A program made the translations under genes and the position numbers. From positions 24,225 to 88,224 of the forward strand of contig BTVJ01000030.1 of the NCBI GenBank assembly GCA_045863395.1: DNA of 64,000 nt, given 5' to 3'. Below the pieces are notes generated by a model. It made no database searches and was not told the origin of the DNA. It was given only the letters and a program-made list of their open reading frames with translations. This document shows positions 27,941 through 46,225 of the stretch, one piece after another; position 1 is the stretch's first letter; each line of letters starts with the position of its first letter. The stretch is from Myxococcales bacterium (GTDB lineage Bacteria; Myxococcota_A; UBA9042; JABWCM01; BTVJ01).

Positions 27941-29593
<1,653 letters not shown>

Positions 29594-29602
29594 CGGCGGC
29601 CG

Positions 29603-29653
29603 GTCAGCGGTCGGCCGGGCTCCTCTTGGGGGGCGAGGACCGGGACCGCTGAC
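29603..29653. terminator. Hairpin between convergent mutase and reductase genes
   Basis: GTCAGCGGTC / GACCGCTGAC outer stem with inner TCCTC/GAGGA; no U-tract. Confidence 0.35.
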
Positions 29654-29661
29654 GGCCGGGC

Positions 29662-30408
29662 TCACATCACCAGGCCGCCGTCCACGTCCACGACGCGCCC
29701 GTTGAAGTAGTCGCACTCGATGATGAACCTCGCGGCGAGCCAGATGTCCTCGGGGAGGCCGATGCGCCCGACGGGGATGGCGGCGACCAGGGCGTCGCGG
29801 GCCTTCTGGTTCATGCCCTGGGTCATGGGGGTCTCCACCATGCCGGGGGCGATGGCGCCCACGCGGATGCGGAATGGAGCGAACTCCCGCGCCCACGTCA
29901 CGGTGTTGGCCGCGAGCGCCGCCTTGGCCGACACGTAGTTGGACTGGCCCCGGTTCCCGTGCCGCGCCACCGACGACATGTTGATGATGACGCCCGGGCC
30001 GGAGTCCGTCTCGGCGATCTTCGCGGCCACCTCGCGCACCATGAAGGTGGCGCCGCTCAGGTTCACGCCGATGACCGCTGCCCACGCCTCGTCGGAGAGC
30101 TTCCTCACCTCGCCCGTCGCGCGGTCCTTCTTGACGAGGAGGCCGTCGCGCAGGATGCCCGCGTTGTTGACCAGGCCGTTGAGGCCGCCCATGGCGTCAT
30201 GGGCCCAGGCGACGAAGGACTCGCAGTCGGCGGAGCTGGAGACGTCCAGCCGGCGCCGATGGATGCCCGCGGGGAGCTCCGCCATGACCGCCTCGTTCAT
30301 GTCGCCGACGGCCACCTGCGCCCCCGCCTCGTGGAGGCGGCGCGCCATGTGCGCCCCGATGCCCTGCGCTCCGCCGGTGACGATTATCTTCAGTTCATTC
30401 AGTTGCAT
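29662..30408 (-). CDS. fabG: SDR 3-oxoacyl-ACP/CoA reductase (FabG-like; probable PhaB role)
   Basis: TGGAQGIG, NNAGILRD, GQSNYVSAK (YxxxK); start overlaps phaC end. Confidence 0.85.
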   Translation of the reverse strand: MQLNELKIIVTGGAQGIGAHMARRLHEAGAQVAVGDMNEAVMAELPAGIHRRRLDVSSSADCESFVAWAHDAMGGLNGLVNNAGILRDGLLVKKDRATGEVRKLSDEAWAAVIGVNLSGATFMVREVAAKIAETDSGPGVIINMSSVARHGNRGQSNYVSAKAALAANTVTWAREFAPFRIRVGAIAPGMVETPMTQGMNQKARDALVAAIPVGRIGLPEDIWLAARFIIECDYFNGRVVDVDGGLVM

Positions 30409-31382
30409 AGCCTGCTCCTCAGCCACGAAGTGAGTTCGGGGTACAGCACGGTGGTCGCCTTGCTTCCGACGACGGCGCCCACGTGCCCGCCGGGAACCGT
30501 AAATACCCGCTTGTCGCTGGAACCGCAACGGTCATTGAGCGCGGTCGCGGCCGGTGGGGGGCAGATCGTGTCGCGGGATGTCACCACCGTCATGACGGGG
30601 CAGCGGATGGCCCCCAGATCCACGCGGCGCCCGGCGACCACGTGGGTCCCCGCCACGAGCTGGTTCTCTTGATAGAGGTCGTGGATGTAGCGCTGGTAGG
30701 CCGCCGCGGGGAACGGGATGTTGTCGCCCGCCCAGGCCTCGAGCGCCTCGAAGGCGAGCCGGTCCGCGGGGCTGTGCGCCCGGTCGAGGAAGCCGACCCA
30801 CTTGGCGAGCTGCGACGTGGGGCGCATGGCGACGAAGCCGCTCTGCATCTGCGCCGGTGAGAGGTTGCCCGCCGCCGTGAGGCCCGAGGGGTCGAACCAC
30901 CGGGGATCCACCATGTGGCGCAGCACCCCGCCCTCGGAGAAGTCGATGGGGCCCGCCAGGTTGACCAGCGCCGCCACCTGGTCCGGGTGGAGCGCGGTCC
31001 AGATGGCGGAGACCGTGCCGCCCATGCAGTAGCCGAGCACGCCCACCTTCGGGGCGCCGGTCTCCCGCTTGACGCGCCGCACCATGCGGCCGATGCGCGC
31101 GATGACGTCGTCCCACTCCAGGTAGCGGTCCTCGTCGTTGGGGATGCCCCAGTCGAGGCACCAGGTATCGAGGCCCGACTCCACGAGCGCCGACGCCAGG
31201 GACGCGCCTTCGCGCAGGTCCAGCACGTACCAGCGGTTGATCATGGACGGGATGAGGAGCAGGGGGAGGCCCGGGTCCGGCGCCCTCTGGCCGCGGAAGC
31301 GGGTGAGCTGCGCCGTCCCGTCCCGGAGCACGGTGTCCCTCGGGGTGGGCATCAGGGGTAGAGCGGGGCTCGCGAGGAGCAT
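30399..31382 (-). CDS. phaC: PHA synthase, class III-like PhaC subunit (copy 1)
   Basis: PSMINRWYVLDL, DWG, lipase box GYCMGG, Asp in RDTIC, GGHVG; GAGGAG RBS. Confidence 0.85.
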   Translation of the reverse strand: MLLASPALPLMPTPRDTVLRDGTAQLTRFRGQRAPDPGLPLLLIPSMINRWYVLDLREGASLASALVESGLDTWCLDWGIPNDEDRYLEWDDVIARIGRMVRRVKRETGAPKVGVLGYCMGGTVSAIWTALHPDQVAALVNLAGPIDFSEGGVLRHMVDPRWFDPSGLTAAGNLSPAQMQSGFVAMRPTSQLAKWVGFLDRAHSPADRLAFEALEAWAGDNIPFPAAAYQRYIHDLYQENQLVAGTHVVAGRRVDLGAIRCPVMTVVTSRDTICPPPAATALNDRCGSSDKRVFTVPGGHVGAVVGSKATTVLYPELTSWLRSRLCN

Positions 31383-31393
31383 GGGGACTCCTC

Positions 31394-31744
31394 TCAGGCG
31401 GCGAGCTTGGACTTCACGGCCTCGGCGGCCTGCCGCGTGGCGTCCATGGTGACCTTGCGCCACTCCGTGCCGAGCGTGTTGGCGTAGGTGACCGTCTCCT
31501 TCACCAGCTTCGCGGTCTCGTCGATGGCGGTCATGGTCTGCGCGAGCGCCTTCTCGTTGAGCTTGCCGACCTCCTCGAAGAGGGAGCCCATGCGCGCCAT
31601 CTGGTCGTCCATCAGCTTCTTCCAGGCGTTGAGCGCCTCGTGCGCCTGCTGGGCGCCGGTGAACGGGGGGAACGCCGTGAACGGGGGGACGCTCTGGTCG
31701 GCGGACTTTGCGCTGCTCTTGGTGCTCTCGCTGGTCGTGCTCAT
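31394..31744 (-). CDS. Phasin-like small helical protein
   Basis: 116 aa amphipathic helical, Ala/Lys/Thr-rich; first gene upstream of phaC; PhaR-type boxes in its promoter. Confidence 0.6.
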   Translation of the reverse strand: MSTTSESTKSSAKSADQSVPPFTAFPPFTGAQQAHEALNAWKKLMDDQMARMGSLFEEVGKLNEKALAQTMTAIDETAKLVKETVTYANTLGTEWRKVTMDATRQAAEAVKSKLAA

Positions 31745-31814
31745 GGTGGTCTCCTCTCGGGTCTTCGTGGGCGGCGTCAGTGCCACCAGACGAGAGCGAG
31801 GATAGGGCGCGTGT

Positions 31815-31902: not shown

Positions 31903-32349
31903 CTACGGCCGCCGGCCAAGCCACGCCCGCCACGCCGCGGCGTCCGTGCCCAGGCGCTGCCCGGTGAGCACCTCCAGGGCCGCGGCGACCCGGCCGCGCT
32001 CCTCGTCACCCCACGCCGGGGTCCCGAGCGACGCCACCAGCAGCTCCAGGTGGCCGAGGGCCGGGGTACGGCGCATGATCTCCACCACTACGGAGCGCCG
32101 CGCCGGGTCCGACGACACCACGCCCTCGTGCAGCTCCGAGAGGCAGAGCCGGTCCATGGCCGCCGCGGCCGCCGCCACCTGGGGCTCGGCCGCTCCGTCG
32201 AGGCGCTGCGCCGTCGCCGCCGCATCGACCAGCGCCCGGCACCGCTCCACCACCGCGAGCTGTTCGCCCGGGCCCGGCTTCGCCCCGCAGGCCCCCGCCG
32301 CCGCCGCGATCACCGCCAGCGCCCGCGCGCCGACCCACATGCTGCTCAT
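31903..32349 (-). CDS. Small helical lipoprotein of unknown function
   Basis: Lipobox AGAC; GGAGG RBS; ATGA overlap with ATPase stop; C-terminal LEVLTGQRLGTDAAAWRAW. Confidence 0.65.
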   Translation of the reverse strand: MSSMWVGARALAVIAAAAGACGAKPGPGEQLAVVERCRALVDAAATAQRLDGAAEPQVAAAAAAMDRLCLSELHEGVVSSDPARRSVVVEIMRRTPALGHLELLVASLGTPAWGDEERGRVAAALEVLTGQRLGTDAAAWRAWLGRRP

Positions 32350-34535
32350 GGCTTCCTCCTTGGGACGATCTCCCGCACGACCTTGCCGAGGGACTGGTAC
32401 TCCTCGTTGGCGGCGCGCAGCAGGTGCGCCTGCGTGATGGGCTCCTCCGCCAGCGCCGCCAGGAAGGCCGCGCGGAGCACCGCGTTGGCGATGTGGCCGC
32501 CCGAGAGATCGAAGTCCTCGCCGAGCCCTGCGAAGTCGATGGGCGCCGCGCCGAGGGCCACCCGCGGCACCAGCAGCTCCCAGAGCCTGGCGCGCTCGAC
32601 GGGACCCGGCGCCGCGAAGTGGACCCGGTGGTTGATGCGCCGCACAAAGGCGGTGTCCATGCTCGCCTCCAGGTTCGTCGTCAGGATGGCGACCCCCTCG
32701 AAGCGCTCGATGCGCTGAAGGAGGTAGCTGGTCTCCTGGTTCGCGTACCGGTCGTGGGAGGAGCTGACGGACGTGCGCGTCGCGAACAGCGAGTCGGCCT
32801 CGTCGAACAGGAGCAGCGCCCGGCGCGACGCCAGCTCGTCGAAGAGCGCGCCCAGGTTCTTCTCCGTTTCGCCGATGAACTTGGACACCACCTGCGACAG
32901 GTCCACCCGCAGCAGCTCCAGGTCGAGCATGCGCGCCAGGATCCGCGCCGCGTGGGTCTTTCCCGTTCCGGGCGGCCCGTGGAACAGCGCCGTCAGGCCA
33001 CGGCGCGGGATGCGGCGCCCGAGGCCCCAGGTGCCGAACACGAGCTCCGCGTGCTGGTGCTGCGCGACGATCAGCTCGAGGCGCTCGCGCACCTCGGGCG
33101 ACACGACCAGCTCGTCGAGGGACCCGCCGGGGGTCATCCGCTCGACGAGGGGTCCGAGGCGCTCGCCGGTGTGCGCCTCCAGCGCGTCCTCGATGAGCCG
33201 CCCCACGTCGCCCCGGCCGCTCCCGGCGAGGCGCAGCGACTGCACGACCGAGCGGATCGTGCCGCCCGTCACGCGGTAGCGGGCCGCCAGCCATGCCGGG
33301 TCGAGCCCCTCGGCGCCCGGAAGGCGTCGCATGGCCTGCGTCCAGAGGGACGTGCGGGTCTCATGATCCGGGCGCGAGAGCTGCGCCGCCATGACGGCCC
33401 GCGGGCGCAGGTCCAGGGAGGGGCGCTGCTCCGTGTCGACGCACACGACGAGGGGAAGCGGGTCGCGCTCGGTCAGAGCGCGCAGGCGGTCCGCCGTCAC
33501 CGGGTCGAGGGCCTCGCTGAAGTGCAGGACCAGCAACGCGCGGAGGAGCCGGGCCTCCCGGGCGAGCTTCACGAGCGCCTCGTCACTGAGGCGCGCGCGC
33601 CGCGCGTCGGCAATCAGCGCCGCGCCGCCAAGGCGGGACGCCAGGGCAGACGCCACCGTCCGCTTGCCCGTGCCCTCGGGCCCATACAGCAGTAGCACGG
33701 GCGAACCCGCCGGCAGGGTGCCCTGCTCCGCCGCGGACACGAAGGTGTCGGCGGCGCCTTGGAGGCGTGCGCGGACCTCCTCGGAGAGGATCAGGCCGCG
33801 GGTGATCTCCGGGTGGCCGGTGGTCGGCGGTGACAAGGTCGCGAGCCCCTCCAGGGCGGGGTCGAGGCCCGTATCGTCCCGCAGGAACTCCACTACCCGG
33901 CGCGCCGGGACGAGCTCCATGCGCAGCACGCCGATGCGGTCCGGGTCGTCGACGAGCGGCGGGCAGAGCAGCCGGTGGCGAAGCAGCGGCGCGTCGATGC
34001 GCAGCGCGTCGCGCACGGCGTCTCGCTCGCCCTCGGTCGTGGCGAGCAGCGCGAGGGCCAGCGCGCCGTCGGGGGCCTGCCGCGTCACGTCGTCCTGGAG
34101 GAACGCCACGGTCCGGCGCACGGCCTCCGACAGCTCGGCGGCCGTCGCGAGCACCAGGAGCGCCGACGCCGTGGAGTCGAGCCCGAAGGCGTCGCGCACG
34201 CTGGCGAGCGGCAGAGGCACTCCGCAGGTGGCCGAGGCCCGCTCGCGGGCAGCGACGACCGCGTCCAAGTGCGCGACCGCCGCGCGGAGGCGCTCCACCT
34301 CCGCGCCCTGGGGCGCCTGGGCTGGGGGGCGGACGGCGGCTGGGGGGGCGAAGAAGCTCCCCGCCCACCGGTCGGGACGCTCCACGAGCAGCCCCGCCTC
34401 CTGGGCGGCGGCCACATGCAGCAGGAGGCGCAAGCGGACGCCCTCCACCAGGGCGCCGAGGTGCTCGCGGCCCGTGGTGAACAGCCCCGTCAGCGGCTCG
34501 CAGAGCCAGGCGTCGAGCTCCGCCTGCGGGATCAT
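32346..34535 (-). CDS. eCIS/Afp15-like (CDC48-type) double AAA+ ATPase
   Basis: Walker A1 GPEGTGKR (Walker B degenerate); Walker A2 GPPGTGKT, LLFDEADSLF, SKFIGETEKNL, DRYANQETSYLLQRIE. Confidence 0.88.
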   Translation of the reverse strand: MIPQAELDAWLCEPLTGLFTTGREHLGALVEGVRLRLLLHVAAAQEAGLLVERPDRWAGSFFAPPAAVRPPAQAPQGAEVERLRAAVAHLDAVVAARERASATCGVPLPLASVRDAFGLDSTASALLVLATAAELSEAVRRTVAFLQDDVTRQAPDGALALALLATTEGERDAVRDALRIDAPLLRHRLLCPPLVDDPDRIGVLRMELVPARRVVEFLRDDTGLDPALEGLATLSPPTTGHPEITRGLILSEEVRARLQGAADTFVSAAEQGTLPAGSPVLLLYGPEGTGKRTVASALASRLGGAALIADARRARLSDEALVKLAREARLLRALLVLHFSEALDPVTADRLRALTERDPLPLVVCVDTEQRPSLDLRPRAVMAAQLSRPDHETRTSLWTQAMRRLPGAEGLDPAWLAARYRVTGGTIRSVVQSLRLAGSGRGDVGRLIEDALEAHTGERLGPLVERMTPGGSLDELVVSPEVRERLELIVAQHQHAELVFGTWGLGRRIPRRGLTALFHGPPGTGKTHAARILARMLDLELLRVDLSQVVSKFIGETEKNLGALFDELASRRALLLFDEADSLFATRTSVSSSHDRYANQETSYLLQRIERFEGVAILTTNLEASMDTAFVRRINHRVHFAAPGPVERARLWELLVPRVALGAAPIDFAGLGEDFDLSGGHIANAVLRAAFLAALAEEPITQAHLLRAANEEYQSLGKVVREIVPRRKP

Positions 34536-34912
34536 GGGGTCTCCTCCCTGGGCGCAACGAACGCCAGCAAGACGGCGGGCCCACCCCCTGCGGCCTCCGC
34601 GTAGGCGCGCCCCAGCGCGGTGGCGTCTCCGTAGCCGTGGGAGTCCTCCGCACGAAAGAGCGACTCCCCGATGGCCCGAGCGAGCCACGTCCGCAGCGCC
34701 TGCCTCCCAGGCCACCCGCCAAACAGACGGGCGTCGAGCACCACCGTCCCCGTGGCCTCGTCGAAGAGCCCGAGCCGCTCACCCGGGAGGCGCGCCTTGA
34801 CGTAGGCAACGACCGCCGGGTTCCCGGTCACGTGGGCGTCGGGGAGGCGCTCCAGCTCGTCCCAGAGCCGCTCCAGATCGCTCGCCTCCCATGGCACGCG
34901 GGTCGCTCGCAC
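34532..34912 (-). CDS. Small protein resembling an inactive copy of the DUF4157 protein's C-terminal peptidase domain
   Basis: Fills the gap between CpXC and ATPase genes, ATGA overlap; DLERLWDELERLPDAHVTGN vs DLGRLWTILDRLPESQIEDN. Confidence 0.65.
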   Translation of the reverse strand: MRATRVPWEASDLERLWDELERLPDAHVTGNPAVVAYVKARLPGERLGLFDEATGTVVLDARLFGGWPGRQALRTWLARAIGESLFRAEDSHGYGDATALGRAYAEAAGGGPAVLLAFVAPREETP

Positions 34913-35749
34913 TCAGCTCTCCTCGTGGGTCGGCCGGCCCTGGGGGAGCGTCGAGTCCACGGGGGCCGGCGCCATCAGGACGGCCCCGGGGGAGCCGCCT
35001 GGTGGGGCGATTGTCTGCGTCGACGCCGCCAGCAGGTCGGACCAGCGCGCCGCGGCCTCGACCGCACGCGCGTCATGCAGGGGTGGGTAGAGCACGCGGT
35101 CCAGGTGCACGAAGGCCCCCTCGAACAGCTCGGGCGTCCGCTCCCGGTACTCGTCCAGGCGTGCGACGACCCGGTCGTAGAGCTGCCGGCCGCAGCCGAC
35201 CCGCTGGATGTCGCTCGTGCCCCTCACGCGCACCTCCAGCTCGAAGCGCTCTGCCCCTGGCAGGAGCCGCACCGCCATGCCGGGCCGCATGAGCCCTGGG
35301 TGGCGGGCGAGCACCCGCAGCTTCACGAGCTCGACGGCCCGGTCGTCGAGGCCGGCGTCCCAGGCGTGGAGCTTCTCCGCGAGCTGGTCGTAGCCGAACA
35401 CGAGGCGCACCACGAAGCGAGGAGCCAGGGCCTGGATCATGGGTGGGGCGGCGCGCACCACGACGCGCTCGAACTCGGCCAGCAGCTCGCGCTCCAGGAC
35501 GCTCCAGCTCGCGGTCCACTCCTGGGGGCAGACGCCGACCCAGTGGAAGCGGGCGAAGTCCGTATAGAGCAGCTTCTTCTCGATGGTGCGCAGCTCCCCG
35601 CACGCCGGGCAGGCGGCGCGGTGGAACGTGCCATCGAGGATCCGCGCGCGCACCTCCGGCAGGCGCGACACGTGGAGGCCGTCGGCGACCTGCGCGCTGA
35701 GCTCGTGCCCGCACGGGCATCTGACCATCCGGGTGGCCCAGGTCGACAT
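34913..35749 (-). CDS. CpXC domain (zinc ribbon) protein
   Basis: RCPCG...PEVRARILDGTFHRAACPACG...LLYTD; RLVFGYDQLAEK. Confidence 0.8.
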   Translation of the reverse strand: MSTWATRMVRCPCGHELSAQVADGLHVSRLPEVRARILDGTFHRAACPACGELRTIEKKLLYTDFARFHWVGVCPQEWTASWSVLERELLAEFERVVVRAAPPMIQALAPRFVVRLVFGYDQLAEKLHAWDAGLDDRAVELVKLRVLARHPGLMRPGMAVRLLPGAERFELEVRVRGTSDIQRVGCGRQLYDRVVARLDEYRERTPELFEGAFVHLDRVLYPPLHDARAVEAAARWSDLLAASTQTIAPPGGSPGAVLMAPAPVDSTLPQGRPTHEES

Positions 35750-35995
35750 GCGGCTCTGCTCCGTGGCCCTCGCCTGGAGTCCCGCCAACGCCGTGCGAAG
35801 CCGGAGACGTTTGAGAAGCTCGGCGCCAAGGGTAGCCCGGGCGCCGCGCGGGGTCCAGCCGTTGCGCCTCCCGAGGCGGGGCGCGGTCGAGTGATCTCGA
35901 GGTCTTGCGCGTGTCGTCCGCCCGCATGGCGCCAGGCATGCGTCGCTGTGGTATGCTCCCCATCCATCCGGGACATCGAGACGAGCGAGGGGCCC

Positions 35996-38900
35996 ATGCG
36001 GGACAGGCGTGAGCGCGGCGAGGAGGCAGAGAGGGCCGGGGGATCTGCCGGGGCTTTGGGTCCCGCGGAGACCAGGCCGAGGCGCGGCAACGCCGCCATG
36101 GCGCGGGCCGCGCTCGCCGAGCGGGGCGCTCCGAGGGCCGTCAGGCAGGTGCTCGAGGGCGGCGGGCGTCCGCTCCATGAGGGCGAGCTCGCACCCTTCG
36201 AGGGGGCCCTGGACGGCGACCTCTCCGGGGTGCGGATCCACGAAGGGGCCAACGCCGAGCGCGCCGCCGCGTCCGTCGGTGCCCGCGCCTTCACCGCCGG
36301 CCAGGACGTGGTCATGGGCAGCGGCGCCACGGCGGCGACGCTGGCCGAGGAGGTCGTCCACGCGCTGCAGCCGCAGGACCCGTCCCCGGCGGCGCTGGTC
36401 AGCGACCCGGGCGCCGCCGCGGAGCACGAGGCGCGGGGCGCCGTCGCCGCCCTCGCGCAGGGCCGCGCGGTCACCCCCTCCGAGACCCGCACCGCGGCCC
36501 TGGTCCGGGAGGCCTCGGGCGCGTCCCGAATCAGCGAGCTCCGCCAGCTCCTGGACGACGGCGACGAGGACGGCGCCATCAGCCTCATGGGCCGGCTCTC
36601 GGCGGCGGAGGTGGCCTCGGTCCTCGGCAACGCGAGCCTCAAGCAGCTCGCGGTCTCCTGCTTCGACGACGAGGAGATGTACCGCGGCGTCCGCGCCATG
36701 GGCGGCGACCTGTGGAAGTCGCTCGATTGGATGTTCGCGGAGGGCACGAGCCTCAGCTACGTGCTCGACGTCATCAACCGGTGCGCGAGCGATGCCCAGA
36801 AGGACGTGGTGCGCCGGAGCGGCACCATGCGCAGCCACTTCGTCGGGCTGTGCGATGATGGCGAGATGGTGCAGGTCACGAGTGCCCTCGGCGGGACGCT
36901 GGCGCAGAAGCTCGACTGGATGTTCGCCGAGGGCACGAGCTGGCAGGCGGCCCGCGCCCTGATCGTCGCCGCCCCGGAGGACCAGAAGGCCGCCGTGCGC
37001 ACCAGCGCCACCATGCGCGCGAGCTTCATCTCGCTGCTCGGCAACGACGAGATGCGCGACTGCGTGCAGGTGCTCGGCGGCCGCCTCATCGACCAGCTCA
37101 CGTGGATGTTCGCCGAGGGCACCGACTGGCCGTCCGTGCGGCAGATCATCGAGGCCCAGCCGGACCCGGCCCAACGGGCCGCCGTGCGTCAGAGCGCCGC
37201 CATGCGCGACGCCCTCGTGGGTGTCTGCGGCGACGACGAGATGGAGGACGCGGTGGTCCTCCTCGGTGGCGACCTCCGGTGGCGGCTCCAGTGGATGTTC
37301 GCGGAGGGCACGAGCTTCGAGGCGGTCAAGCGCCAGATCGGGCGCTGCCCCGAGTCGGAGCGCGCCGCCGTGACCACGGACACGGCGCTGCGAGACCACT
37401 TCGTGTCGCTGCTCGGTGACCAGGAGATGCAGGAGCTGGTGGGGATCCTGAGCGGCGACCTGCTGTTCAAGGTGGATTGGCTCATCGCCGAGGGCACGAG
37501 CTGGGACGCCATCAAGACCCACATCCAGGCGGCGCCGGAGTCACAGAAGGCGGCCGTGCGCGGCAGCGCCACGGCGCGGGCTCGCTTCTGCGACCTGCTC
37601 GGCAACGACCAGATGGCGGAGGCCGTCGACCTGCTCGGCGGGGACCTGCGGTTCAAGCTCGACTGGATGTTCGAGGAGGGCACCGACTGGGCTGCCGTCC
37701 GCGCGAAGATCACCGCCGCGGACGAGGCCGGGAAGGCCGCGGTGCGGGCGGACCCGACCATGCGCGGCCACTTCGTCTCGCTGCTCGGCAACGCGGAGAT
37801 GCAGGAGGCCGTGGGGCTGCTCGGGGGCGACCTGCGCTTCAAGCTCGACTGGATGATGGAGGAGGGCACGGACTGGGCGACCGTCCGCGCGATGATCGTC
37901 GCGGCGGACGAGCCGCAGCGGGCCGCGGTGCGTGGAGACTCCCGGATGCGGGGCCACTTCGTGTCGCTTCTCGGCAACGTAGAGATGGCCGACGCGGTGG
38001 TGGTGCTCGGAGGCGACCTGCGGTTCCAGCTCGACTGGATGTTCGCGGAGGGCACGGACTGGCCGACCGTCAAGGCGCGCATCCAGGCGGCGGACGAGGC
38101 CGGGCGGGCCGCCGTTCGTGGCGACCGGACCATGCGTGACCGCTTCGTGTCGCTGCTCGGCGACGACGAGATGCGCGAGGCGGTGGACCTGCTGGGCGGC
38201 GACCTGCGCTTCAAGCTCGAGTGGATGATGGAGGAGGGCACCGAGTGGTCCATCGTCCGGGCGATGATCGTCGCCGCGTCCGAGGCGGAGCGCGCGACCG
38301 TGCGCGGGGACCGGCGGATGCGGGAGCGCTTCGTGTCGCTGCTCGGCAACGACGAGATGGCCGACGCCGTGGTGGTGCTCGGGGGCGACCTGCGGTTCCA
38401 GCTCGACTGGATGTTCGCGGAGGGCACGGACTGGGCTACGGTCAGAGGGCGCATCCAGGCGGCGGACGATGCGGGGCGGGCGGCGGTGCGGCAGGACCCG
38501 GCCATGCGGGGCCACTTCGTGTCGCTGCTCGGCAACGACGAGATGGCGGAGGCCGTGGTGCTGCTCGGGGGGGACCTGCGGTTCCAGCTCGACTGGATGT
38601 TCGCGGAGGGCACGGACTGGCCGACCGTCCGCGGGCGCATCCAGGCGGCCGGCGAGGCGGAGCGTGCCGCCGTGCGTGCGGCGCCGGGGATGCGAGCGCT
38701 GTTCGTCTCGCTCTGCGGCGACGCGGAGATGGCCGAGGCGGTGGGGCTCCTCGGCGGGGACCTGAGGTTCAAGCTGGAGTGGACCCTGGAGGAGGGCACC
38801 ACCTGGGCGGCGGCGCGGGCCCTCATCGAGGCGGCCCCGGAGGCGGAGCGGGCGGTCGTGCGAGGGGACGCGGCCATGCGCGACCGCTTCGTGGGGCTGC

Positions 38901-41900
38901 TCGGCGACGACGAGATGGCCGAGGCGGTGGACGTGCTCGGGGGCGACCTGCGCTTCAAGCTCACCTGGATGTTCGCCGAGGGCACGGACTGGGCGGCCGT
39001 GCGGGCGAAGATCACGGCGGCGGACGAGGCGGGCAAGGCGGCAGTGCGGGGTGACGCGGCGATGCGCGGCCACTTCGTCTCATTGCTTGGCAACGCCGAG
39101 ATGGCGGAGGCGGTGGGGCTCCTCGGAGGGGACCTGCGCTTCAAGCTGGACTGGATGTTCGAGGAGGGAACCGACTGGGCGACGGTGCGCCCGCTGCTGG
39201 TCGCCGCGCCCGAGGCGGAGCGGGCGGCGGTGCGGACTGATCGGGCGATGCGGGGGCACTTCGTGTCCCTGCTCGGGGACGAGGAGATGAAGGACGCCGT
39301 GACCGTGCTCGGGGGCGACCTGCGATTCAAGCTCGAGTGGACCCTGGAGGAGGGCACGACGTGGGCCGAGGCCCGCGCCCTCATCGAGGCGGCGCCGGAG
39401 ACGGAGCGGGCGGCTGTGCGTGCGGACGCCGCCATGCGGGCGCGCTTCGTGTCGCTGCTCGGGGACGATGAGATGCGCGACGCAGTGGGGCTCCTCGGCG
39501 GGGACCTGCGCTTCAAGCTCGACTGGATGTTCGCGGAGGGCACGAGCTGGGAGTCGGTGCGCCCGCTCATCGAGGCGGCGCCGGAGACCGAGCGGGCGGC
39601 GGTGCGGACCGATCCGGCCATGCGCGCCCACTTCGTGTCGCTGCTCGGCAACGACGAGATGGCAGCCGCGGTGCAGCTCCTGGGCGGGGATCTGCTCTTC
39701 CAGCTCGACTGGATGTTCGCCGAGGGCACGGACTGGCCGACGGTGCGCGAGCGGATCCGCGCCGCCCCGGAGGCGCAGCGCGCGGCGGTGCGGGAGAGCG
39801 CCGCCATGAAGGGGCGCTTCATCGAGCTCCTGGGCAACGACGAGATGCGCGAGGCGGTGGGGCTCCTCGGGGGCGACGTCTTCTTCCACCTGACCTGGAT
39901 GCTGGCCGAGGGGACGAGCTGGGAGGCGGTCCGCGCGGAGCTGGAGGCGGCCGACGAGGCGGGGAAGGCGCGCATCCGCGGCGATCTCGGCATGCGCGGC
40001 TGGTTCGTCGACAACCTGAACGACGCGCAGATGGCCGACGCGGTGGGGCTCCTCGGGGGCGACCTGCGCTTCAAGCTCGGGTGGACCCTGGCGGAGGGGA
40101 CGACCTGGGCGGCCGTCCGGGCGCTGATCGAGGCCGCGCCGGCGCCGGAGCGCACGGCGGTCGCCAGCGACCACGAGCTGATGGCGAGCATCGCGGCGCT
40201 CTGCACCGCGCAGGAGCTGCGAGCGGCCCTCGACCTGCTCGGCGCGGACCTGGTGGTCCGGGTGGGCTTCCTGCTGGGCCAGGGCATCGACGACGCCGGG
40301 CTGCGGGCGACCATCGCGGCGGCGCCGCCCGAGCAGCAGATGGCGCTCATCGGGAGCACGCACCTCGCGGGCGTTCTGGCCACGCTGACGGGGAGCGCCA
40401 TCGACGCCTTCACCGCGCTGGCCGACCCGGGCCGCTTCGCTACCGCGATGGGCAACCCGACCATGGTCAGTGAGCTCCTGGAGCAGCCGGCAGACGGCGT
40501 GCTGACACGGCTGGCAGGGACCGAGGCGGCGGCCGCGGCGGCGCTGAACCACATGGACGACAGCCTGTCGTGGATGCGCCCGCTGCCGGTGCGGGGCGCG
40601 CTGTCGGAGCCGCAGCGGCAGGCGCTGCGTGTGCTGTTCAACCAGGCGCCGCGGGTGCCGCAGCGGTGGAGCCTCTTCGAGCGGCGCTTCGGCGCCGATC
40701 TCTCCGGGCGCTGGGGGAGCACGCTGGACCCGGGGGACCTCGGGCGGCTCTGGACGATCCTCGACCGGCTCCCGGAGTCGCAGATCGAGGACAACCGCTA
40801 CATCGACGACCTGGTGCGCCACTTCCGAGGCGGCGGGACCTACCAGGGCGGGACCATCAACATCGGCTCCATGCCGAACGACCACGACTTCTACGCCCCG
40901 GAGGGCTGGCGCACACGCTCGGAGATTGCGGGGATCCTGGGCATCTCGGAGGCCGACGTGGACGCGCAGGTCACGGCGGGCATGATCCGGAAGCAGACCA
41001 TCGGGGGCCAGGACCTCTACTCCCTGTTTCAGTCCTACACCAAGCCCCAGATGGCGGGCCTTCTGGGGATCACCGAGGCGGACGTGGACACCCTCGCGGC
41101 GTCGTCCGTCCTCGTGCGCAATGGGACTCTGTACCGCATCAACCACGCCCAGTGGCGGACGGCGGCAGAGATGGCGGCGTACCTGGGCATCCCGGAGGGG
41201 GACCTGGACGGCCGCGTCACCGCCGGGCAGCTCGTGCGGGCGACGGTGGGCGGGGCTGTGAAGTACGCGGTGCGGCTGGTGGTGCAGTCCTACTTCGACC
41301 ACACGGTGCTCCACGAGGTGGGCCATGCGGTGGACGACATGCTCGGCAACCACACGGACATCGTGTACGGGTGGGCCGGCTGGGAGAAGTACGGCGAGGG
41401 AGACGTACGCAGGTGGGCCGACCAGATGGGGGGCTGGGGGCCGGTGCAGGCCGGCGACACCCTGGAGGACATCAAGTCGGCGATCTGCTCCGCCATGGAC
41501 GACTACATGGACAAGTCGTCGGACATCCCGGCCCCGGGGGAGAACATCGGCGCGGACCTTCCGCCCACCCACGCCTGGCACCGGTATTCCAACTGGCCCA
41601 TCGTGCGCTGGGCCGGGACCAAGATGTTCCACTACACGACGCCCCACCCCCACGACGACGGGACCCACCTCTACACGGCCAACTTCTACTACCAGAAGTG
41701 GATGCGCGTGAAGAGCGCGGCGGTGCGGTCCATCCCGCGCGACTACACGCGGTTCGCGCCCGAGGAGTGGTTCGCCGACTCCTACGCCGAGTTCTACCGC
41801 CTCTACGACGGCACCCCTGCGACCGAGCACCTCAAGGGAGGCAACCTCCAGAGCGTCGTGAAGGAGTGGTTCAGACAGCACGTGGACCAGCGCGGTCGCA

Positions 41901-41968
41901 CGCCTCAGAACCAGACGGCGGGCGGAAGACCGTCGCCGACGTCTGGCGTCCACAGCGGGCGGAGGTAG
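35996..41968 (+). CDS. DUF4157 (eCIS core domain) protein with 19 helical repeats and C-terminal HEXXH metallopeptidase; putative toxin/effector
   Basis: GNAA, GGRPL, DLSGVRIHEG, ARAFTAGQDV, EHEA; HEVGH and PEEWFADSYA at C-terminus; 1990 aa from ATG 35996. Confidence 0.85.
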   Translation: MRDRRERGEEAERAGGSAGALGPAETRPRRGNAAMARAALAERGAPRAVRQVLEGGGRPLHEGELAPFEGALDGDLSGVRIHEGANAERAAASVGARAFTAGQDVVMGSGATAATLAEEVVHALQPQDPSPAALVSDPGAAAEHEARGAVAALAQGRAVTPSETRTAALVREASGASRISELRQLLDDGDEDGAISLMGRLSAAEVASVLGNASLKQLAVSCFDDEEMYRGVRAMGGDLWKSLDWMFAEGTSLSYVLDVINRCASDAQKDVVRRSGTMRSHFVGLCDDGEMVQVTSALGGTLAQKLDWMFAEGTSWQAARALIVAAPEDQKAAVRTSATMRASFISLLGNDEMRDCVQVLGGRLIDQLTWMFAEGTDWPSVRQIIEAQPDPAQRAAVRQSAAMRDALVGVCGDDEMEDAVVLLGGDLRWRLQWMFAEGTSFEAVKRQIGRCPESERAAVTTDTALRDHFVSLLGDQEMQELVGILSGDLLFKVDWLIAEGTSWDAIKTHIQAAPESQKAAVRGSATARARFCDLLGNDQMAEAVDLLGGDLRFKLDWMFEEGTDWAAVRAKITAADEAGKAAVRADPTMRGHFVSLLGNAEMQEAVGLLGGDLRFKLDWMMEEGTDWATVRAMIVAADEPQRAAVRGDSRMRGHFVSLLGNVEMADAVVVLGGDLRFQLDWMFAEGTDWPTVKARIQAADEAGRAAVRGDRTMRDRFVSLLGDDEMREAVDLLGGDLRFKLEWMMEEGTEWSIVRAMIVAASEAERATVRGDRRMRERFVSLLGNDEMADAVVVLGGDLRFQLDWMFAEGTDWATVRGRIQAADDAGRAAVRQDPAMRGHFVSLLGNDEMAEAVVLLGGDLRFQLDWMFAEGTDWPTVRGRIQAAGEAERAAVRAAPGMRALFVSLCGDAEMAEAVGLLGGDLRFKLEWTLEEGTTWAAARALIEAAPEAERAVVRGDAAMRDRFVGLLGDDEMAEAVDVLGGDLRFKLTWMFAEGTDWAAVRAKITAADEAGKAAVRGDAAMRGHFVSLLGNAEMAEAVGLLGGDLRFKLDWMFEEGTDWATVRPLLVAAPEAERAAVRTDRAMRGHFVSLLGDEEMKDAVTVLGGDLRFKLEWTLEEGTTWAEARALIEAAPETERAAVRADAAMRARFVSLLGDDEMRDAVGLLGGDLRFKLDWMFAEGTSWESVRPLIEAAPETERAAVRTDPAMRAHFVSLLGNDEMAAAVQLLGGDLLFQLDWMFAEGTDWPTVRERIRAAPEAQRAAVRESAAMKGRFIELLGNDEMREAVGLLGGDVFFHLTWMLAEGTSWEAVRAELEAADEAGKARIRGDLGMRGWFVDNLNDAQMADAVGLLGGDLRFKLGWTLAEGTTWAAVRALIEAAPAPERTAVASDHELMASIAALCTAQELRAALDLLGADLVVRVGFLLGQGIDDAGLRATIAAAPPEQQMALIGSTHLAGVLATLTGSAIDAFTALADPGRFATAMGNPTMVSELLEQPADGVLTRLAGTEAAAAAALNHMDDSLSWMRPLPVRGALSEPQRQALRVLFNQAPRVPQRWSLFERRFGADLSGRWGSTLDPGDLGRLWTILDRLPESQIEDNRYIDDLVRHFRGGGTYQGGTINIGSMPNDHDFYAPEGWRTRSEIAGILGISEADVDAQVTAGMIRKQTIGGQDLYSLFQSYTKPQMAGLLGITEADVDTLAASSVLVRNGTLYRINHAQWRTAAEMAAYLGIPEGDLDGRVTAGQLVRATVGGAVKYAVRLVVQSYFDHTVLHEVGHAVDDMLGNHTDIVYGWAGWEKYGEGDVRRWADQMGGWGPVQAGDTLEDIKSAICSAMDDYMDKSSDIPAPGENIGADLPPTHAWHRYSNWPIVRWAGTKMFHYTTPHPHDDGTHLYTANFYYQKWMRVKSAAVRSIPRDYTRFAPEEWFADSYAEFYRLYDGTPATEHLKGGNLQSVVKEWFRQHVDQRGRTPQNQTAGGRPSPTSGVHSGRR
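36701..40240 (+). repeat. Intragenic tandem array: 19 x ~186 bp (62 aa)
   Basis: Consensus GGDLRFKLDWMFAEGTDWAAVRALIxAAPEAERAAVRxDxAMRxHFVSLLGNDEMAEAVGLL; 3540 bp = 17 x 62 aa + 2 x 63 aa. Confidence 0.95.
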
Positions 41969-41978
41969 TGTCGGGCGC

Positions 41979-42512
41979 CTACTGGCGCCGCAGGAGGAGC
42001 TGCTTCAGCTCGTCGAGCTCCTTGCGCAGCGCGGCGACCTCGTCGCGGGAGGCTGTGCGGTCATCGCGGGCATCGGGGTCCGGGGGCGGCTCGTCGTCGG
42101 GGGGCTCGACGGGCGCGCTGGGCCGTGACCGGGGGGCGGGGCGCCCGAAGGGCATGGGGATGGGCTGCGACGCGAAGGGGTTGAGGTGGGTGAACAGGCC
42201 GATGCCCCGGCGGGCCTGCATGTAGACCTCGAAGGCCCAGCTCACCCAGCGGCCCATGAACTCGGCGAAGGGCAGGTCGCCCATGCGGATCATCTGGACC
42301 AGCAGCGGGGTCGGCAGCAGCTTCGCGGCGCCCCGGCTCTCGAACAGGATCTGCGTGAGGGTCACCTGGGTCAGGTCCTCACCGGTCTTCGCGTCCGTGA
42401 CGACCACATCCGCGCCCCGCTCGATCTTGACCGCCAGCTCCTCCAGCGTGACGTAGCGGCTCTCGTCCGTGTCGTAGAGCCGGCGGTTGCTGTACTTCTT
42501 GATGACGACCAT
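41979..42512 (-). CDS. phaR: PHA synthesis repressor PhaR
   Basis: IKKYSNRRLYDT, YVTLEEL, DAKTGEDLT..TLTQI. Confidence 0.92.
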   Translation of the reverse strand: MVVIKKYSNRRLYDTDESRYVTLEELAVKIERGADVVVTDAKTGEDLTQVTLTQILFESRGAAKLLPTPLLVQMIRMGDLPFAEFMGRWVSWAFEVYMQARRGIGLFTHLNPFASQPIPMPFGRPAPRSRPSAPVEPPDDEPPPDPDARDDRTASRDEVAALRKELDELKQLLLRRQ

Positions 42513-42615
42513 GGAGCCTCCGATGCTGCGGTGCGGTAGAGCCGGATCCTACCGTGGTCCCTGCTCTCCGTCCAGGCTTGTTTCACCAAGCTGTGGCGCC
42601 ATGGTCCCGGTTTTG

Positions 42616-42642
42616 TGCAGCGCGGTTGCTGCGATGCAAAAT
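42616..42642. promoter_or_regulatory. Putative PhaR operator in the phaR/lipoprotein divergent promoter
   Basis: TGCAGCGCG at 42616 and TGCGATGCA at 42630 within TTGCTGCGATGCAAAAT. Confidence 0.65.
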
Positions 42643-42720
42643 GGCCATTGACAGCCGGGCGCTGCGGGGGTAGTCATGGGCTCGCTGGCCTCACGAGTCG
42701 GGGCCACGAGGAGCGACCCG

Positions 42721-43749
42721 ATGCGCAGCCGAACCCTCATCGTGACCCTGGCGCTGGGCCTCGTGGCCTGCCCCGAGGACCCCAAGGAGTGCGCCACCGG
42801 TGCGGACTGCCCCTCTGGAGCGTGCACGGCGTCCGGCGTGTGCGTTGGGCTCGACGCGTCGGAGGGCCCGGACTGGGCCGGCGGGGAGCCCGATGACGGG
42901 GGAGGCGTGGACGCTACGGGGGGAGAGGACGTGGCCGTAGGGTCGGACGTCCCTGGCGCATTGGACAGTGGAGCGCTGCCTGGAACCGACGTGAGCATCG
43001 ACACCGCCGCGCCGAAGGACACGGGCCCGGCGCCGGACACGGGCGGAGGCGTCTGCCAGCCCAACGACGACGGCGTGGTCACCCGGGACGAGATGCCCAT
43101 CGCGGCGGGCCTCCACGCGAGCTACCGGGTGGCGACGGACGTGACCTGGAGCACGGCTGCCAAGGGCACGGCCGGCTCCCTGACGTGGGACCTCTCCGGA
43201 GGCTTCCCCGGGGACACCAACACGCTGGTGGAGGCCCGCTCCCTGGAGGGCACCTGGTTCGAGGGGGACTTCCCGGACGCCACCTACGCGGCGCGGCTGT
43301 CCGAGACCCAGAACCTGCTCGGCGTCTTCAAGGTGACGGACTCCGGGCTCTTCCTCGTCGGCGTCGTCAGCATCGAGGACGGGGTGACCGCCACCAAGGT
43401 CACGTATGATCCGCCCGCTCAGGTGCTCCAGTTCCCCATGAGCGAGGGGGATGTGTGGAAGACCAAGTCCACCGTCACGGGCACCACCCTCGGCGTCTGG
43501 TCCTTCTACACGGAAGACTACCGCTCGGAGGTGGACGCCCATGGGACGCTGAAGACCCCCTTCGGCGACTTCCCGGTGCTGCGGGTGAACGTGGAGCTGG
43601 TCCGCACGGTGGGGGTGCTCCCCACCACCACCCGCACCCACATGTTCGTCGCCGAGTGCTTCGGCACGGTGGGGACGGTGGTGTCGAAGCCCAACGAGCT
43701 GAAGGCGGAGTTCGAGGCGGTCAGCGAGCTGCGGAGGCTGGCCCCGTGA
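42721..43749 (+). CDS. Lipoprotein, beta-rich, paralog of 46229-47113
   Basis: Lipobox LVAC; acidic linker; CQPNDDGVVTRDE and ECFG...ELRRL motifs. Confidence 0.8.
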   Translation: MRSRTLIVTLALGLVACPEDPKECATGADCPSGACTASGVCVGLDASEGPDWAGGEPDDGGGVDATGGEDVAVGSDVPGALDSGALPGTDVSIDTAAPKDTGPAPDTGGGVCQPNDDGVVTRDEMPIAAGLHASYRVATDVTWSTAAKGTAGSLTWDLSGGFPGDTNTLVEARSLEGTWFEGDFPDATYAARLSETQNLLGVFKVTDSGLFLVGVVSIEDGVTATKVTYDPPAQVLQFPMSEGDVWKTKSTVTGTTLGVWSFYTEDYRSEVDAHGTLKTPFGDFPVLRVNVELVRTVGVLPTTTRTHMFVAECFGTVGTVVSKPNELKAEFEAVSELRRLAP

Positions 43750-44654
43750 CGCGCGGGTGGCTGCTTCGCGCCCCGTGGGTGGGGGCCCTCGCGGTGGTGG
43801 CGGGGTGCCTGTCCTTCCACGCGGGCCCCATGCCCGGAGAGCCGGTGGACGCCACCTTCATGGAGGTGGACGGCGTGCGTCTGCGCTACCTGGACGAGGG
43901 GCAGGGTGCGCCGGTGGTGCTGATCCACGGCTTCGCGTCGGCCATCGAGAACTGGGCGGCCGTGATCCCGAAGCTGCGGGAGCGCCATCGCGTCATCGCG
44001 CTGGATCTCAAAGGCTTCGGCTGGAGTGACCGCCCTGAAGGGGACTACTCCCCCGAGGCCGAGGCCCGGCTGGTGCTCGGGCTCATGGACCGCCTTCACG
44101 TGGATCGCGCCGCCGTCGTCGCCCACTCCTGGGGATCGTCCGTGGCGCTGGCCCTCGCGCTCCAGGCCCCCGAGCGGGTGTCGCGACTCGCGCTCTACGA
44201 CGCCTGGGTCTACGAGTCTCAGCAGCCGAGCTTCTTCCTCTGGTCCCGCGCCGCCGGCCTGGGGGAGTTCCTCGTGGGCGCGTACTACGACCAGCGGCCC
44301 GACGACCGCATGACGGCGGCCTTCTTCAACAAGGACGCGATCCCCGAGCGGCTCATCGAGGAGGTGGAGTCCGCCCTGGAGCGGCCCGGCACCAAGGCGG
44401 CGGCGCTGGCGGCCATCCGGGGGCAGCGGTTTGCCGAGCTGGAGGGGCGCTACGGCACCATCGAGGCTCCTGCGCTGCTGCTCTGGGGGCGGGAGGACGA
44501 GGTGACGCCGGTCAGCGTCGGCGAGCAGTTGGTGCGCCAGCTCCGGGACGCCCGGCTCATCGTCTACGAGCGCTGCGGCCACTTCCCCATGATCGAGGCG
44601 GAGGCCACGTCGACGCGGGACCTCATGGCCTTCCTCGCCGAGGGGGCGCTGTGA
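43746..44654 (+). CDS. Alpha/beta hydrolase, probable lipoprotein
   Basis: VAGC lipobox; IHGF, DLKGFG, AHSWG nucleophile, WGREDEV, CGHFP; GTGA overlap. Confidence 0.88.
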   Translation: MTRGWLLRAPWVGALAVVAGCLSFHAGPMPGEPVDATFMEVDGVRLRYLDEGQGAPVVLIHGFASAIENWAAVIPKLRERHRVIALDLKGFGWSDRPEGDYSPEAEARLVLGLMDRLHVDRAAVVAHSWGSSVALALALQAPERVSRLALYDAWVYESQQPSFFLWSRAAGLGEFLVGAYYDQRPDDRMTAAFFNKDAIPERLIEEVESALERPGTKAAALAAIRGQRFAELEGRYGTIEAPALLLWGREDEVTPVSVGEQLVRQLRDARLIVYERCGHFPMIEAEATSTRDLMAFLAEGAL

Positions 44655-46225
44655 GCCTCAAAGCGGCGAGCATGGCGGTCGTACTCGTCCTGGCCGCGTC
44701 CCCGGCCGGCGCCACGGGCTTCACTGACATCGGCCAGGACCTGGTCCCCGAGACGGAGACCTGGGTCCAGGTGCACGGGGCCCTGCGCGTGCGGGGCGAG
44801 CTGCTCTGGAACCTGGACCTGGACCGGGGCCTCACGCCGTCGGGGCGCGCGCTGTTCCCGGTCCCCCTGGAGGACACGACCCGCCAGGACGTCTGGAACG
44901 CGGACATGCGCGTGCGCACCGACCTGGCGTTCTACGCGCCGTTTGGGGCCATGGCGGTCAAGCTGCGCATCGACGCCTTCGACAACCTGGCGCTGGGCAG
45001 CACGCCGGATGGGATCCCGTCGGCGTCGTCGAGCCAGCGCCCGCCGGAGGACGTGCTCCGCATCAAGCGCGCCTATGGGGAGGTGCTGACGCCGTTCGGT
45101 CTCCTCGCAGCGGGCCGCATGGGCGCCCACTGGGGCCTGGGCATGTTGACCAACGGGGGAGACTGCGCCGACTGCGACAGCGGCGACGCGGCGGACCGCA
45201 TCGCCTTCATCACGCCGCTTCTGGGGCACATCTGGGCCGTCGCCTACGACTTCAGCTCCGTGGGACCAACCACGAAGCGGGTCGGCAGCTCCCGGGTCGT
45301 GGACTTCGAGCCGAGCGACAACGTGCACACCATCTCGTTCGCGTTCATGGCGTGGCGCAGCGACCTGGCGCGGGAGCGGCGGCGCAAGGCCGGCAAGACC
45401 ACCGTGGACTACGGGCTGCTCTTCTCACACCGCTGGCAGGAGAACGACATCCCGGCATCCTGGGTGTCCCTCGCCCAGCCCCTCACGCGGTACGACAGCT
45501 CCCAGGTCATGGCGCGGGGCTTCACGGCGACGGCCTTCGACGGCTGGGTGCGGGTCACCCACCCGGACCTCCGCATCGAGGCGGAGGCCGCGGTCCTCTT
45601 GGGGTCCGTGGAGCAGGCGTCGCTGATCCCCGGCGCCCTGCTGCGCGAGGGGGTGGAGTCCCTCCAGGTGGGGGTCGCCCTGGAGTCCGAGTTTGGCGCG
45701 TTGGAGGGACCCGTGAGCGGTGGCCTGGACGCGGGCTACGCCAGCGGCGACCCCGCGCCGGGCTTCGGAGCCGTCGCCGCTGGCAATGCGGCCTACGGTG
45801 CGCCGGGGGAGCTGGACGGCGCCCAGGCGCTCCCGCCCCACGACCTGCGCAACGACAACTTCCGCTTCCACCCGGACTACCGCGTCGACCGCATCCTGTT
45901 CCGCGAGATCATCGGGACCGTGTCCGACGCCGTGTACGTGCGCCCCCACGTGACGTGGCGGTTCCTGGACCTCGGGGCCGGTCGCTTCTCTGCGTCCCTG
46001 GCGGCCATCGCCTCCTTTGCGGTAGAGTCCGCGTCCGCGCCCGGCGGGGAGTCGCCGCTCGGCCTGGAGCTCGACCCGACGCTGGTCTACGAGAGCCGGG
46101 ACGGCTTCCTGCTGGCCCTGGACTACGCGGCCCTGTTCCCGTTTTCGGGGCTCGACAACCCGGCGGCCGGCCTGACGGCACGCCCCGCGCAGCTCGCGAG
46201 GCTGCGCGTGCACTTCGCGTTTTGA
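44651..46225 (+). CDS. Outer-membrane beta-barrel, TIGR04551-like
   Basis: Signal peptide; IKRAYGEV..PFG..AGRM..HWGLG, DCADCDSGD, FRFHPDYRVDRILFR; terminal Phe. Confidence 0.75.
   Translation: MSLKAASMAVVLVLAASPAGATGFTDIGQDLVPETETWVQVHGALRVRGELLWNLDLDRGLTPSGRALFPVPLEDTTRQDVWNADMRVRTDLAFYAPFGAMAVKLRIDAFDNLALGSTPDGIPSASSSQRPPEDVLRIKRAYGEVLTPFGLLAAGRMGAHWGLGMLTNGGDCADCDSGDAADRIAFITPLLGHIWAVAYDFSSVGPTTKRVGSSRVVDFEPSDNVHTISFAFMAWRSDLARERRRKAGKTTVDYGLLFSHRWQENDIPASWVSLAQPLTRYDSSQVMARGFTATAFDGWVRVTHPDLRIEAEAAVLLGSVEQASLIPGALLREGVESLQVGVALESEFGALEGPVSGGLDAGYASGDPAPGFGAVAAGNAAYGAPGELDGAQALPPHDLRNDNFRFHPDYRVDRILFREIIGTVSDAVYVRPHVTWRFLDLGAGRFSASLAAIASFAVESASAPGGESPLGLELDPTLVYESRDGFLLALDYAALFPFSGLDNPAAGLTARPAQLARLRVHFAF

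Follow-up and report, generated by a model that had tools for sequence, protein, structure and literature searches.

The DNA analyzed here is a stretch of 64,000 nucleotides from contig BTVJ01000030.1 of a Myxococcales bacterium (positions 24,225 to 88,224; hereafter the window). Five genes at 31903..41968 of the window are interpreted, with a probability of about 0.68, as a satellite cargo cassette for an extracellular contractile injection system (eCIS) with its structural genes at other sites of the genome. The plus strand codes for a predicted eCIS cargo of 1,990 aa (35996..41968) that combines a DUF4157 domain, a long array of repeats and a C-terminal zincin. Divergent from it, across an intergenic region of 246 bp delimited by the open reading frames (ORFs; 35750..35995), are four minus-strand genes specifying a CpXC protein of 278 aa assigned by Pfam (PF14353; 34913..35749), a 126-aa truncated zincin homologue that is an orphan recognized by a profile match (34532..34912), an Afp15/Pvc15-type AAA+ ATPase of 729 aa assigned by Pfam, motifs and tree (32346..34535), and a predicted lipoprotein of 148 aa with a lipobox Cys21 (31903..32349). 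The 126-aa ORF starts with GTG directly after the CpXC stop codon, its own stop is overlapped by 4 bases by the ATPase start, and the lipobox gene overlaps the ATPase gene by 4 bases. All five frames are open, and third-position GC across the genes is 0.87-0.95. An initial annotation of this DNA had described a tightly coupled four-gene operon divergent from a 1990-aa DUF4157 protein, and the ORFs and overlaps agree with this; the C-terminal zincin and the 62-aa repeats were not mentioned there.

The ATPase and the eCIS structural genes

No tube, sheath, baseplate or spike family was detected among 43 of the 246 window ORFs of at least 90 aa, picked as likely coding frames for the family scan, as the initial annotation had stated, and by the core set of Geller 2021 the cassette itself is no eCIS locus. 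A search of the whole source genome (97% complete) for Afp/PVC structural genes found the set present but split over three contigs. Contig C80 carries a Pvc16 cap, two sheaths, two tubes, a CIS_tube-LysM protein and a GPD hub, C18 carries gp25, Baseplate_J and Tail_P2_I, and C90 carries a Phage_base_V spike OB and PAAR. Unrelated genes border every group, which means that the three-way split does not result from contig edges. These loci (L004:6320-19139, L024:10868-16794 and L059:9195-12526) have no ATPase. The tape-measure position is taken by an ORF of 1,573 aa without annotation; Tail_P2_I is fused to a PASTA domain, and PAAR is followed by DUF2169. The initial annotation had left open whether the genes were a satellite cassette for an eCIS encoded elsewhere or a stand-alone system; the structural genes and the type of the ATPase agree with the former, and the latter is not needed.

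The window ATPase matches the winged-helix domain (WHD) PF22977 (E 6e-25) and AAA (E 2e-29). It had been called a double AAA+ ATPase, and two modules are indeed present, although the first has a degenerate Walker B: D1 reads GPEGTGKR and lacks an acidic Walker B, while the motifs of D2 (GPPGTGKT and LLFDEAD) are intact. An N-domain followed by a degenerate D1 and a D2 with a DEAD Walker B is the pattern of the Afp15-like clade (compare PMC11495950). In a tree of D2 modules (41 rows), 36 rows are separated with 99/99 support from five outgroups, which are few and long-branched, and Afp15 and the window ATPase share a clade of 26 rows with 100/99 support, as had been proposed. In BLASTP comparisons the match to Afp15 has E 5e-62, and the outgroups (FtsH/CDC48-like and other AAA+ proteins) reach 1e-10 at best. 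The protein is accordingly classed, from its sequence, as an Afp15/Pvc15-type ATPase and a predicted cargo loader. A query with the ATPase linker gave no match, and NCBIfam named none of the proteins of the module, the best row for the ATPase (IteA) scoring far below its cut-off (105.6 vs 510).

Thirteen full-length Afp15-type ATPases are encoded in the genome, none of them on C80, C18 or C90. For five of the nine eCIS_core (DUF4157) genes the distance to such an ATPase is no more than about 8 kb, and a sixth ATPase gene adjoins that of an ADP-ribosyltransferase protein of 2,101 aa. This last region, on contig C46 (L017:6424-15925), is regarded as another satellite cassette, in which the ATPase is followed by the 2,101-aa protein (C-terminal ADP-ribosyltransferase, no DUF4157) and then by a 293-aa ORF. 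Two DUF4157 cargos of 1,657 and 2,634 aa (L008:6608-15338 and L009:3659-13959) are accompanied by ATPases of their own and by partner genes without annotation; the larger cargo gives a weak Tse3_N match. Two more (L012:8209-9441 and L013:9098-10600) have peptidoglycan-binding domains, one of them with an M15 peptidase, and point to bacterial targets of this eCIS. Stand-alone WHD-only genes of 218-226 aa (L019, L020 and L021, on C44 and C24) are found beside a small ORF and a helix-turn-helix gene in mobile-looking regions, and appear to represent separate reuse of the ATPase N-domain.

Two surveys were made for this study, a class-level census of 87 genomes and a phylum-level census of 301. 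The positions of WHD and sheath matches were compared in five other genomes, one of which (G004) gave no sheath match. In G068, which is a single contig, none of the seven WHD matches lies within 0.9 Mb of the sheath pair, and neither G019 nor G174 has a WHD match on its sheath-bearing contig. The canonical layout is represented by G285, with one WHD match 3 kb from the sheath pair. An eCIS tube gene was present in all 16 CpXC-positive genomes of the class census (14 by PF19266 and two by PF06841).

The cargo protein

The first 58 residues of the cargo, of which 10% are order-promoting, are followed by the eCIS_core domain (DUF4157, PF13699; residues 59-127, 36170..36376, plus strand; E 9e-13, 48.7 bits vs a cut-off of 22). 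Its HExxHxxQ signature is degenerate and reads EEVVHALQ, which makes an active processing peptidase less probable but does not affect the reading of the domain as a cargo marker. Then come 20 tandem repeats of 62-63 aa (36701..40426, plus strand; consensus GGDLRFKLDWMFAEGTDW...), the last of them degenerate. The 14 central copies are 57-84% identical in DNA, and the repeats are helical and belong to no named family. Of the 301 phylum genomes, three were matched by a profile of them, in one case within a frame that has a zincin at its end as well, and a 61%-identical homologue of the cargo (P0152) has the same repeats. An annexin reading is unsupported, as the 20 repeats gave no annexin match in Pfam (E<=5) or among PDB sequences (E<=10), and the Pfam rows Clathrin_lg_ch and Nepo_coat_C are repeat artefacts. 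At L073:1550-7063, true annexin domains, together with helix-hairpin-helix domains, do occur in a second DUF4157 cargo, which lies divergently beside a zincin-CpXC cassette.

The C-terminal zincin metallopeptidase domain (40568..41908, plus strand) was recognized by its motif and predicted fold. Its HEVGH motif occupies residues 1773-1777 (41312-41326) and the distal glutamate is Glu1924 (41765-41767); in an alignment of 60 homologues, the His-Glu-His ligands are conserved in 100% and the distal Glu in 97%. The model (pLDDT confidence score 83) was most similar in VIA-align to the catalytic domain of anthrax lethal factor (1yqy; Z 10.9, rmsd 3.6, 168 aligned), followed by PPEP-3 and PPEP-2 (9g0j and 6fpc; Z 8.9). 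The match of the window domain to Pfam ATLF is below the cut-off (E 0.81, 9.8 bits), and 16 of 36 family members match ATLF at E up to 1, the best at 0.002. A cluster search with a zincin homologue returned unnamed, Peptidase_Mx1, ATLF and M90 clusters. Sequence and model together suggest a distant branch of the Tox-ALF/lethal-factor-like zincins (ATLF, M90, PPEP), a shared fold that gives no substrate. Three Xis/BldC-like winged-helix units are inserted before the HExxH helix (40898..41281, plus strand; 4j2n, Z 5.5 over model residues 111-164); the unit is single-copy in P0152 and in the closest cassette, L046. At E 0.001, Foldseek retrieved no match for the zincin model, and most of its rows were winged helices. 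A word-based search with the zincin profile found four proteins, matches of the profile to xylose isomerase were taken as chance, and a metagenome scan gave no match.

CpXC and its linkage to the zincin

The CpXC protein matches PF14353 with E 1.6e-22 (80.2 bits vs a cut-off of 25.4). Residues 1-225 form the conserved core, and two cysteine pairs (C11, C13, C47 and C50) are invariant in an alignment of 149 rows. In 146 of these the first cysteine is at position 11, and in 146 the second residue is serine, compared with 12% of the proteins of the genome, although the rows were picked by profile score, which somewhat favours conservation at both sites. The core is confidently modelled (pLDDT 96). 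Foldseek found no match to this fold at E 0.001, the best VIA-align Z was 4.4, and sequences in the PDB matched at E 0.17 or above only, results that do not establish a new fold. A cluster search returned CpXC clusters only, and a phage collection held no CpXC match.

CpXC genes are strongly associated with zincin genes. In the class census, a zincin was found within 5 kb of 22 of 26 full CpXC matches and CpXC at 22 of 25 zincin loci, counts made by hand after one 36-residue CpXC match was dropped and two split zincin matches were merged. Among CpXC matches not used in profile building, 8/11 had a zincin, and one of the misses is on a 2.2-kb contig. In the phylum census, for which 7-9 candidates were scored per genome and some profile rows may derive from sampled genomes, 39 of 51 CpXC matches had a zincin within 6 kb and 39 of 80 zincin matches had CpXC; outside the class the corresponding figures are 27/36 and 27/65. 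A Fisher test at the genome level was set aside because kin are not independent. At 18 loci, ATPase, CpXC and zincin have correlated pairwise distances (Mantel rho 0.40-0.48, p 0.0005), and one genome (G004, 93% complete) has four cassettes, each with its nearest relatives in other genomes. The pair displays the conserved adjacency of toxin and partner by which toxin-immunity pairs are recognized.

Across 29 zincin-CpXC loci, the ATPase was found at 18 and DUF4157 at four, in a search with a nine-sequence profile that may miss some. The five genes had been expected to recur together, and this was not borne out: the 126-aa ORF was found only here, and the other two were not seen at the remaining loci. 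The conserved unit is a zincin-CpXC core with an optional ATPase and lipoprotein. In the source genome, both intact CpXC genes flank the two zincin-bearing DUF4157 cargos, and none of the seven other DUF4157 cargos has one. The second intact cassette, on contig C50 (L006:6695-13480), is of a different subtype and comprises an ATPase, a DUF4157-zincin cargo of at least 1,098 aa, CpXC and a 193-aa exported-looking protein. A frameshifted zincin gene at the end of C6 (L093:9000-10186) and a 36-codon remnant of the 5' end of a CpXC gene (C129:14123-14230) are pieces of broken cassettes.

CpXC therefore follows the protease domain and not the ATPase or DUF4157. A general eCIS adaptor is unlikely and was rejected, CpXC being missing beside seven of nine DUF4157 genes and 11 of 13 ATPases of the genome; the adaptors suggested in the initial annotation are hypothetical. 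An inhibitor or a domain-specific chaperone fits CpXC better. If the cassette reading is correct, we tentatively favour an inhibitor, at somewhat less than even odds, ahead of a folding or loading chaperone, which is possible, while a co-delivered activator seems unlikely and any other role rather more so. The near-invariant Ser2 suggests, by analogy, inhibition through the N-terminus, and a structural role for this residue is as possible as an N-terminal plug. When a complex was predicted from alignments of 60 rows for the window zincin and 148 rows for CpXC, two runs, for which controls were not folded, scored 0.00, which speaks neither for nor against binding.

The pair also occurs in other settings. 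Seventeen of 22 related loci were annotated, the remaining five having the appearance of duplicates. Nine of the 17 have a separate CpXC and zincin pair, and in six, from entries titled Rubrivivax or Betaproteobacteria, CpXC is fused in front of the zincin; a short contig carries only CpXC and an ATPase, and a distant CpXC of Acidobacteriota is accompanied by neither. All six fusions begin with MSLMH despite the loss of the cysteines. These fusions (L075-L080) have no cysteines and a basic C-terminal tail, and are inserted among unrelated metabolic genes. Six matches were found on plasmids, and in the three examined, which are alphaproteobacterial, the zincin gene is directly upstream of CpXC, with no ATPase match within 12 kb. 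Cultured carriers of the pair without an ATPase include Leisingera thetidis BMJM1 and Phaeobacter sp. G2. The cargos of about 1,850 aa on two Roseobacter plasmids (L142:6303-11987 and L143:6444-11978) share an N-terminal domain that matches nothing in Pfam and is a candidate for a different type of export signal.

Such arrangements raise the question of whether zincin and CpXC are an intracellular two-part protease switch, a sensor or inhibitor with its protease, released by ATPase unfolding and serving conflict or regulation in the producer, with the eCIS markers as inherited baggage. The six fusions standing alone among metabolic genes, the plasmid pairs without an ATPase, the lack of a detected DUF4157 in most cargos and the DNA-binding-type winged-helix inserts of the window zincin would all suit a switch of this kind. 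However, DUF4157 is present on both intact zincin cargos here and is dispensable for AlgoCIS loading (10.64898/2026.05.27.728243), an Afp15-clade ATPase accompanies 18 of the 29 loci, and the varied lipoprotein-like neighbours described below fit export with immunity. On balance, we consider the switch unlikely.

The lipoprotein and the 126-aa ORF

Neither the 148-aa nor the 126-aa ORF matches a Pfam family. The only homologue found for the lipobox protein is in the closest cassette (L046:5120-5539, E 2e-7), and the lipobox protein is a candidate for envelope immunity. Each of the 37 loci examined has a neighbour of 110-330 aa. These neighbours fall into at least six sequence groups unrelated to one another, and at 16 loci they show a lipobox-like pattern, compared with 10% of small proteins. 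Varied small neighbours with an excess of lipoboxes are as expected of immunity genes with fast turnover, although this is not proof.

Residues 4-60 of the 126-aa ORF match the zincin family profile (E 7e-8 in 6,211 called proteins), at 32.6 bits compared with 6.3 bits for the best of 1,000 shuffles. In a pairwise alignment, a helix without His or Glu occupies the HExxH position, and the distal half is missing. By its sequence, the ORF is a truncated copy of the N-terminal half of the zincin without the zinc site, so that the earlier label of pseudo-peptidase was right in kind. Its third-position GC is 0.87, and a search among 96 candidates of 69-221 aa retrieved only the ORF itself. A remnant is at least as likely as a decoy.

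Proposed mechanism

In the model we propose, the cassette ATPase would grip the disordered N-terminus or DUF4157 of the cargo and thread it unfolded into the eCIS tube, in the manner of Alg15 and Pvc15. Once injected, the lethal-factor-like zincin would cut proteins of the target cell, most likely another bacterium. CpXC would stay in the cytoplasm of the producer and bind the zincin, most likely as an inhibitor plugging the cleft with its free N-terminus, while the lipoprotein would guard the envelope against incoming copies from kin. The 126-aa ORF would be a duplicated zincin fragment, either a remnant or a decoy.

Several observations weigh against this reading. Loading, toxicity and CpXC binding are predictions from sequence and models. 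Seven of the 13 ATPases have no recognized cargo alongside, no ATPase was seen at 11 of the 29 zincin-CpXC loci and no DUF4157 at 25 of them. Of the 80 zincin matches in the phylum census, 41 have no nearby CpXC (20 of them in one family), and the fusions have lost all four cysteines and have no evident secretion signal. The congruent distances can arise from physical linkage alone, and only 16 of the 37 loci have a lipobox-like neighbour. G004, despite its four cassettes, yielded neither a sheath nor a CIS_tube match; tube genes occur in 70 of the 87 class genomes, so their co-presence with CpXC discriminates little. The source genome also holds a locus resembling a type VI secretion system (T6SS).

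A bolder extension of the satellite-cassette reading, which is speculative and somewhat doubtful, is that many Myxococcota have one shared, ATPase-less eCIS chassis and mobile plug-in cassettes, each with a private, cargo-matched loader of the Afp15 type. CpXC would then be a new class of cytoplasmic inhibitor, its free N-terminal Ser shutting lethal-factor-like proteases until the ATPase strips CpXC off at loading, and the zinc-less 126-aa copy would be a decoy or assembly partner.

Comparison with known systems

The closest known relatives of the cargo are toxins of PVC-type secretion systems with Tox-ALF domains, such as Hoch_1736 of the myxobacterium Haliangium, for which Zhang et al. 2012 (PMC3482391) and Kodavali et al. 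2014 (PMC3894181) predicted an N-terminal PVC-metallopeptidase (DUF4157), a helical middle and a C-terminal lethal-factor-like peptidase. In contrast, the middle of the window cargo is a 20-copy 62-aa repeat not recognized as annexin, and its zincin has winged-helix inserts. The portions of those accounts consulted name no CpXC and no cassette-borne ATPase, and give Imm-SuFu as the immunity protein; PMC3482391, with its additional file, may list such neighbourhoods elsewhere. The AlgoCIS (Cgo1/Cgo2 and Alg15), PVC (Pvc15) and Afp (Afp15) systems likewise have cargos with a disordered N-terminus and optional DUF4157, and an AAA+ loader with an active D2 (10.64898/2026.05.27.728243, PMC11495950). 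There, one ATPase lies in the structural cluster, whereas in this genome no ATPase accompanies the structural loci, and the 13 copies are scattered, some of them next to a cargo of their own.

The pair of the VgrG2b C-terminal metallopeptidase and PA0261 (Tpe-Tpi) also combines an injected HExxH protease with an adjacent envelope immunity protein (PMC6899460), but that protease is fused to a T6SS spike, is a weaker structural match (6h56, Z 4.4) and has no CpXC-like cytoplasmic partner. This DUF4157-annotated metallopeptidase is a T6SS effector, which, with the T6SS-like locus on contig C11 and the different N-terminal domain of the plasmid-borne cargos, leads to the idea that the window cargo leaves the cell by another route, through the T6SS or on lysis, and that the ATPase is a general unfoldase. 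We regard this as improbable, as the Pfam scan found no VgrG, PAAR or Rhs domain in the cargo and the ATPase is of the Afp15 type, not ClpV. The T6SS-like locus is at L027:3887-15001, and C60 has a contractile-tail prophage-like region (L028, judged from ORF content).

For the proposed inhibition, the I38 inhibitors of serralysins (Inh, APRin) are operon-linked and occlude the cleft of the metalloprotease with their first residues, which include a conserved Ser (PMC9486555). They are periplasmic eight-stranded barrels acting on metzincins, so that the likeness to CpXC is an analogy, with no homology claimed. No link of CpXC to proteases or eCIS was found among the papers listed in the literature searches, which did not cover subscription journals. 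CpXC occurs zero times in 734 eCIS loci of the Geller 2021 supplement (files 3 and 13-15 being outside the search) and in one row of the Danov 2024 supplement, beside a Calothrix trypsin-nuclease.

Insertion site and neighbouring genes

The cassette is flanked by a phasin-like gene at 31394..31786 (minus strand), which marks the insertion boundary, and a phaR-type regulator (PF07879) at 41979..42512 (minus strand). Genes similar to phaC and phaB come next after the phasin-like gene. The genome G001 belongs to the same order and has phaR, a phasin-like gene (weak match, E 1e-3) and phaC in direct succession, and because phaR and the phasin-like gene adjoin there, the block has probably been inserted between them. 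That the island is recent and decaying, with a once functional core and a non-functional window copy, is the least probable explanation considered: the insertion itself, the truncated 126-aa paralogue with its lower third-position GC of 0.87, the degenerate DUF4157 motif and the broken copies on C6 and C129 are countered by five open and coupled frames, intact zinc ligands and D2 Walker motifs, and the 61%-identical homologue P0152 with the same repeats.

The interrupted cluster for polyhydroxyalkanoate metabolism (28001-31786 and 41979-50193 of the window) includes methylmalonyl-CoA mutase, phaB-, phaC- and phasin-like genes, phaR, an acyl-CoA ligase and a second PhaC-like gene. Further away, Dicty_CTDC cysteine-rich repeats, 21 and 26 in number, are found in two large proteins (16653-21230 and 50357-53017), and there is a DUF7107 repeat protein (13737-15431).

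Implications

The cargo class, ATPase-dependent loading and envelope immunity are already known. New, as far as was searched, are the CpXC-zincin partnership with its natural fusion, and loaders dispersed with their cargo around an ATPase-less chassis. CpXC, a family of 5,082 clusters at 50% identity (one profile search) with no eCIS link in the sources searched, thereby gains a testable function. The partnership bears on how producers survive antibacterial cargo that seemingly has no immunity genes, a question left open in PMC8213781, and the dispersed loaders bear on the specificity of ATPases for loading sequences, left open in 10.64898/2026.05.27.728243. Surveys of eCIS that are centred on the structural locus miss cargo cassettes distant from the structural genes, and loader specificity finds a natural test case in a genome that combines a single chassis with 13 loaders.

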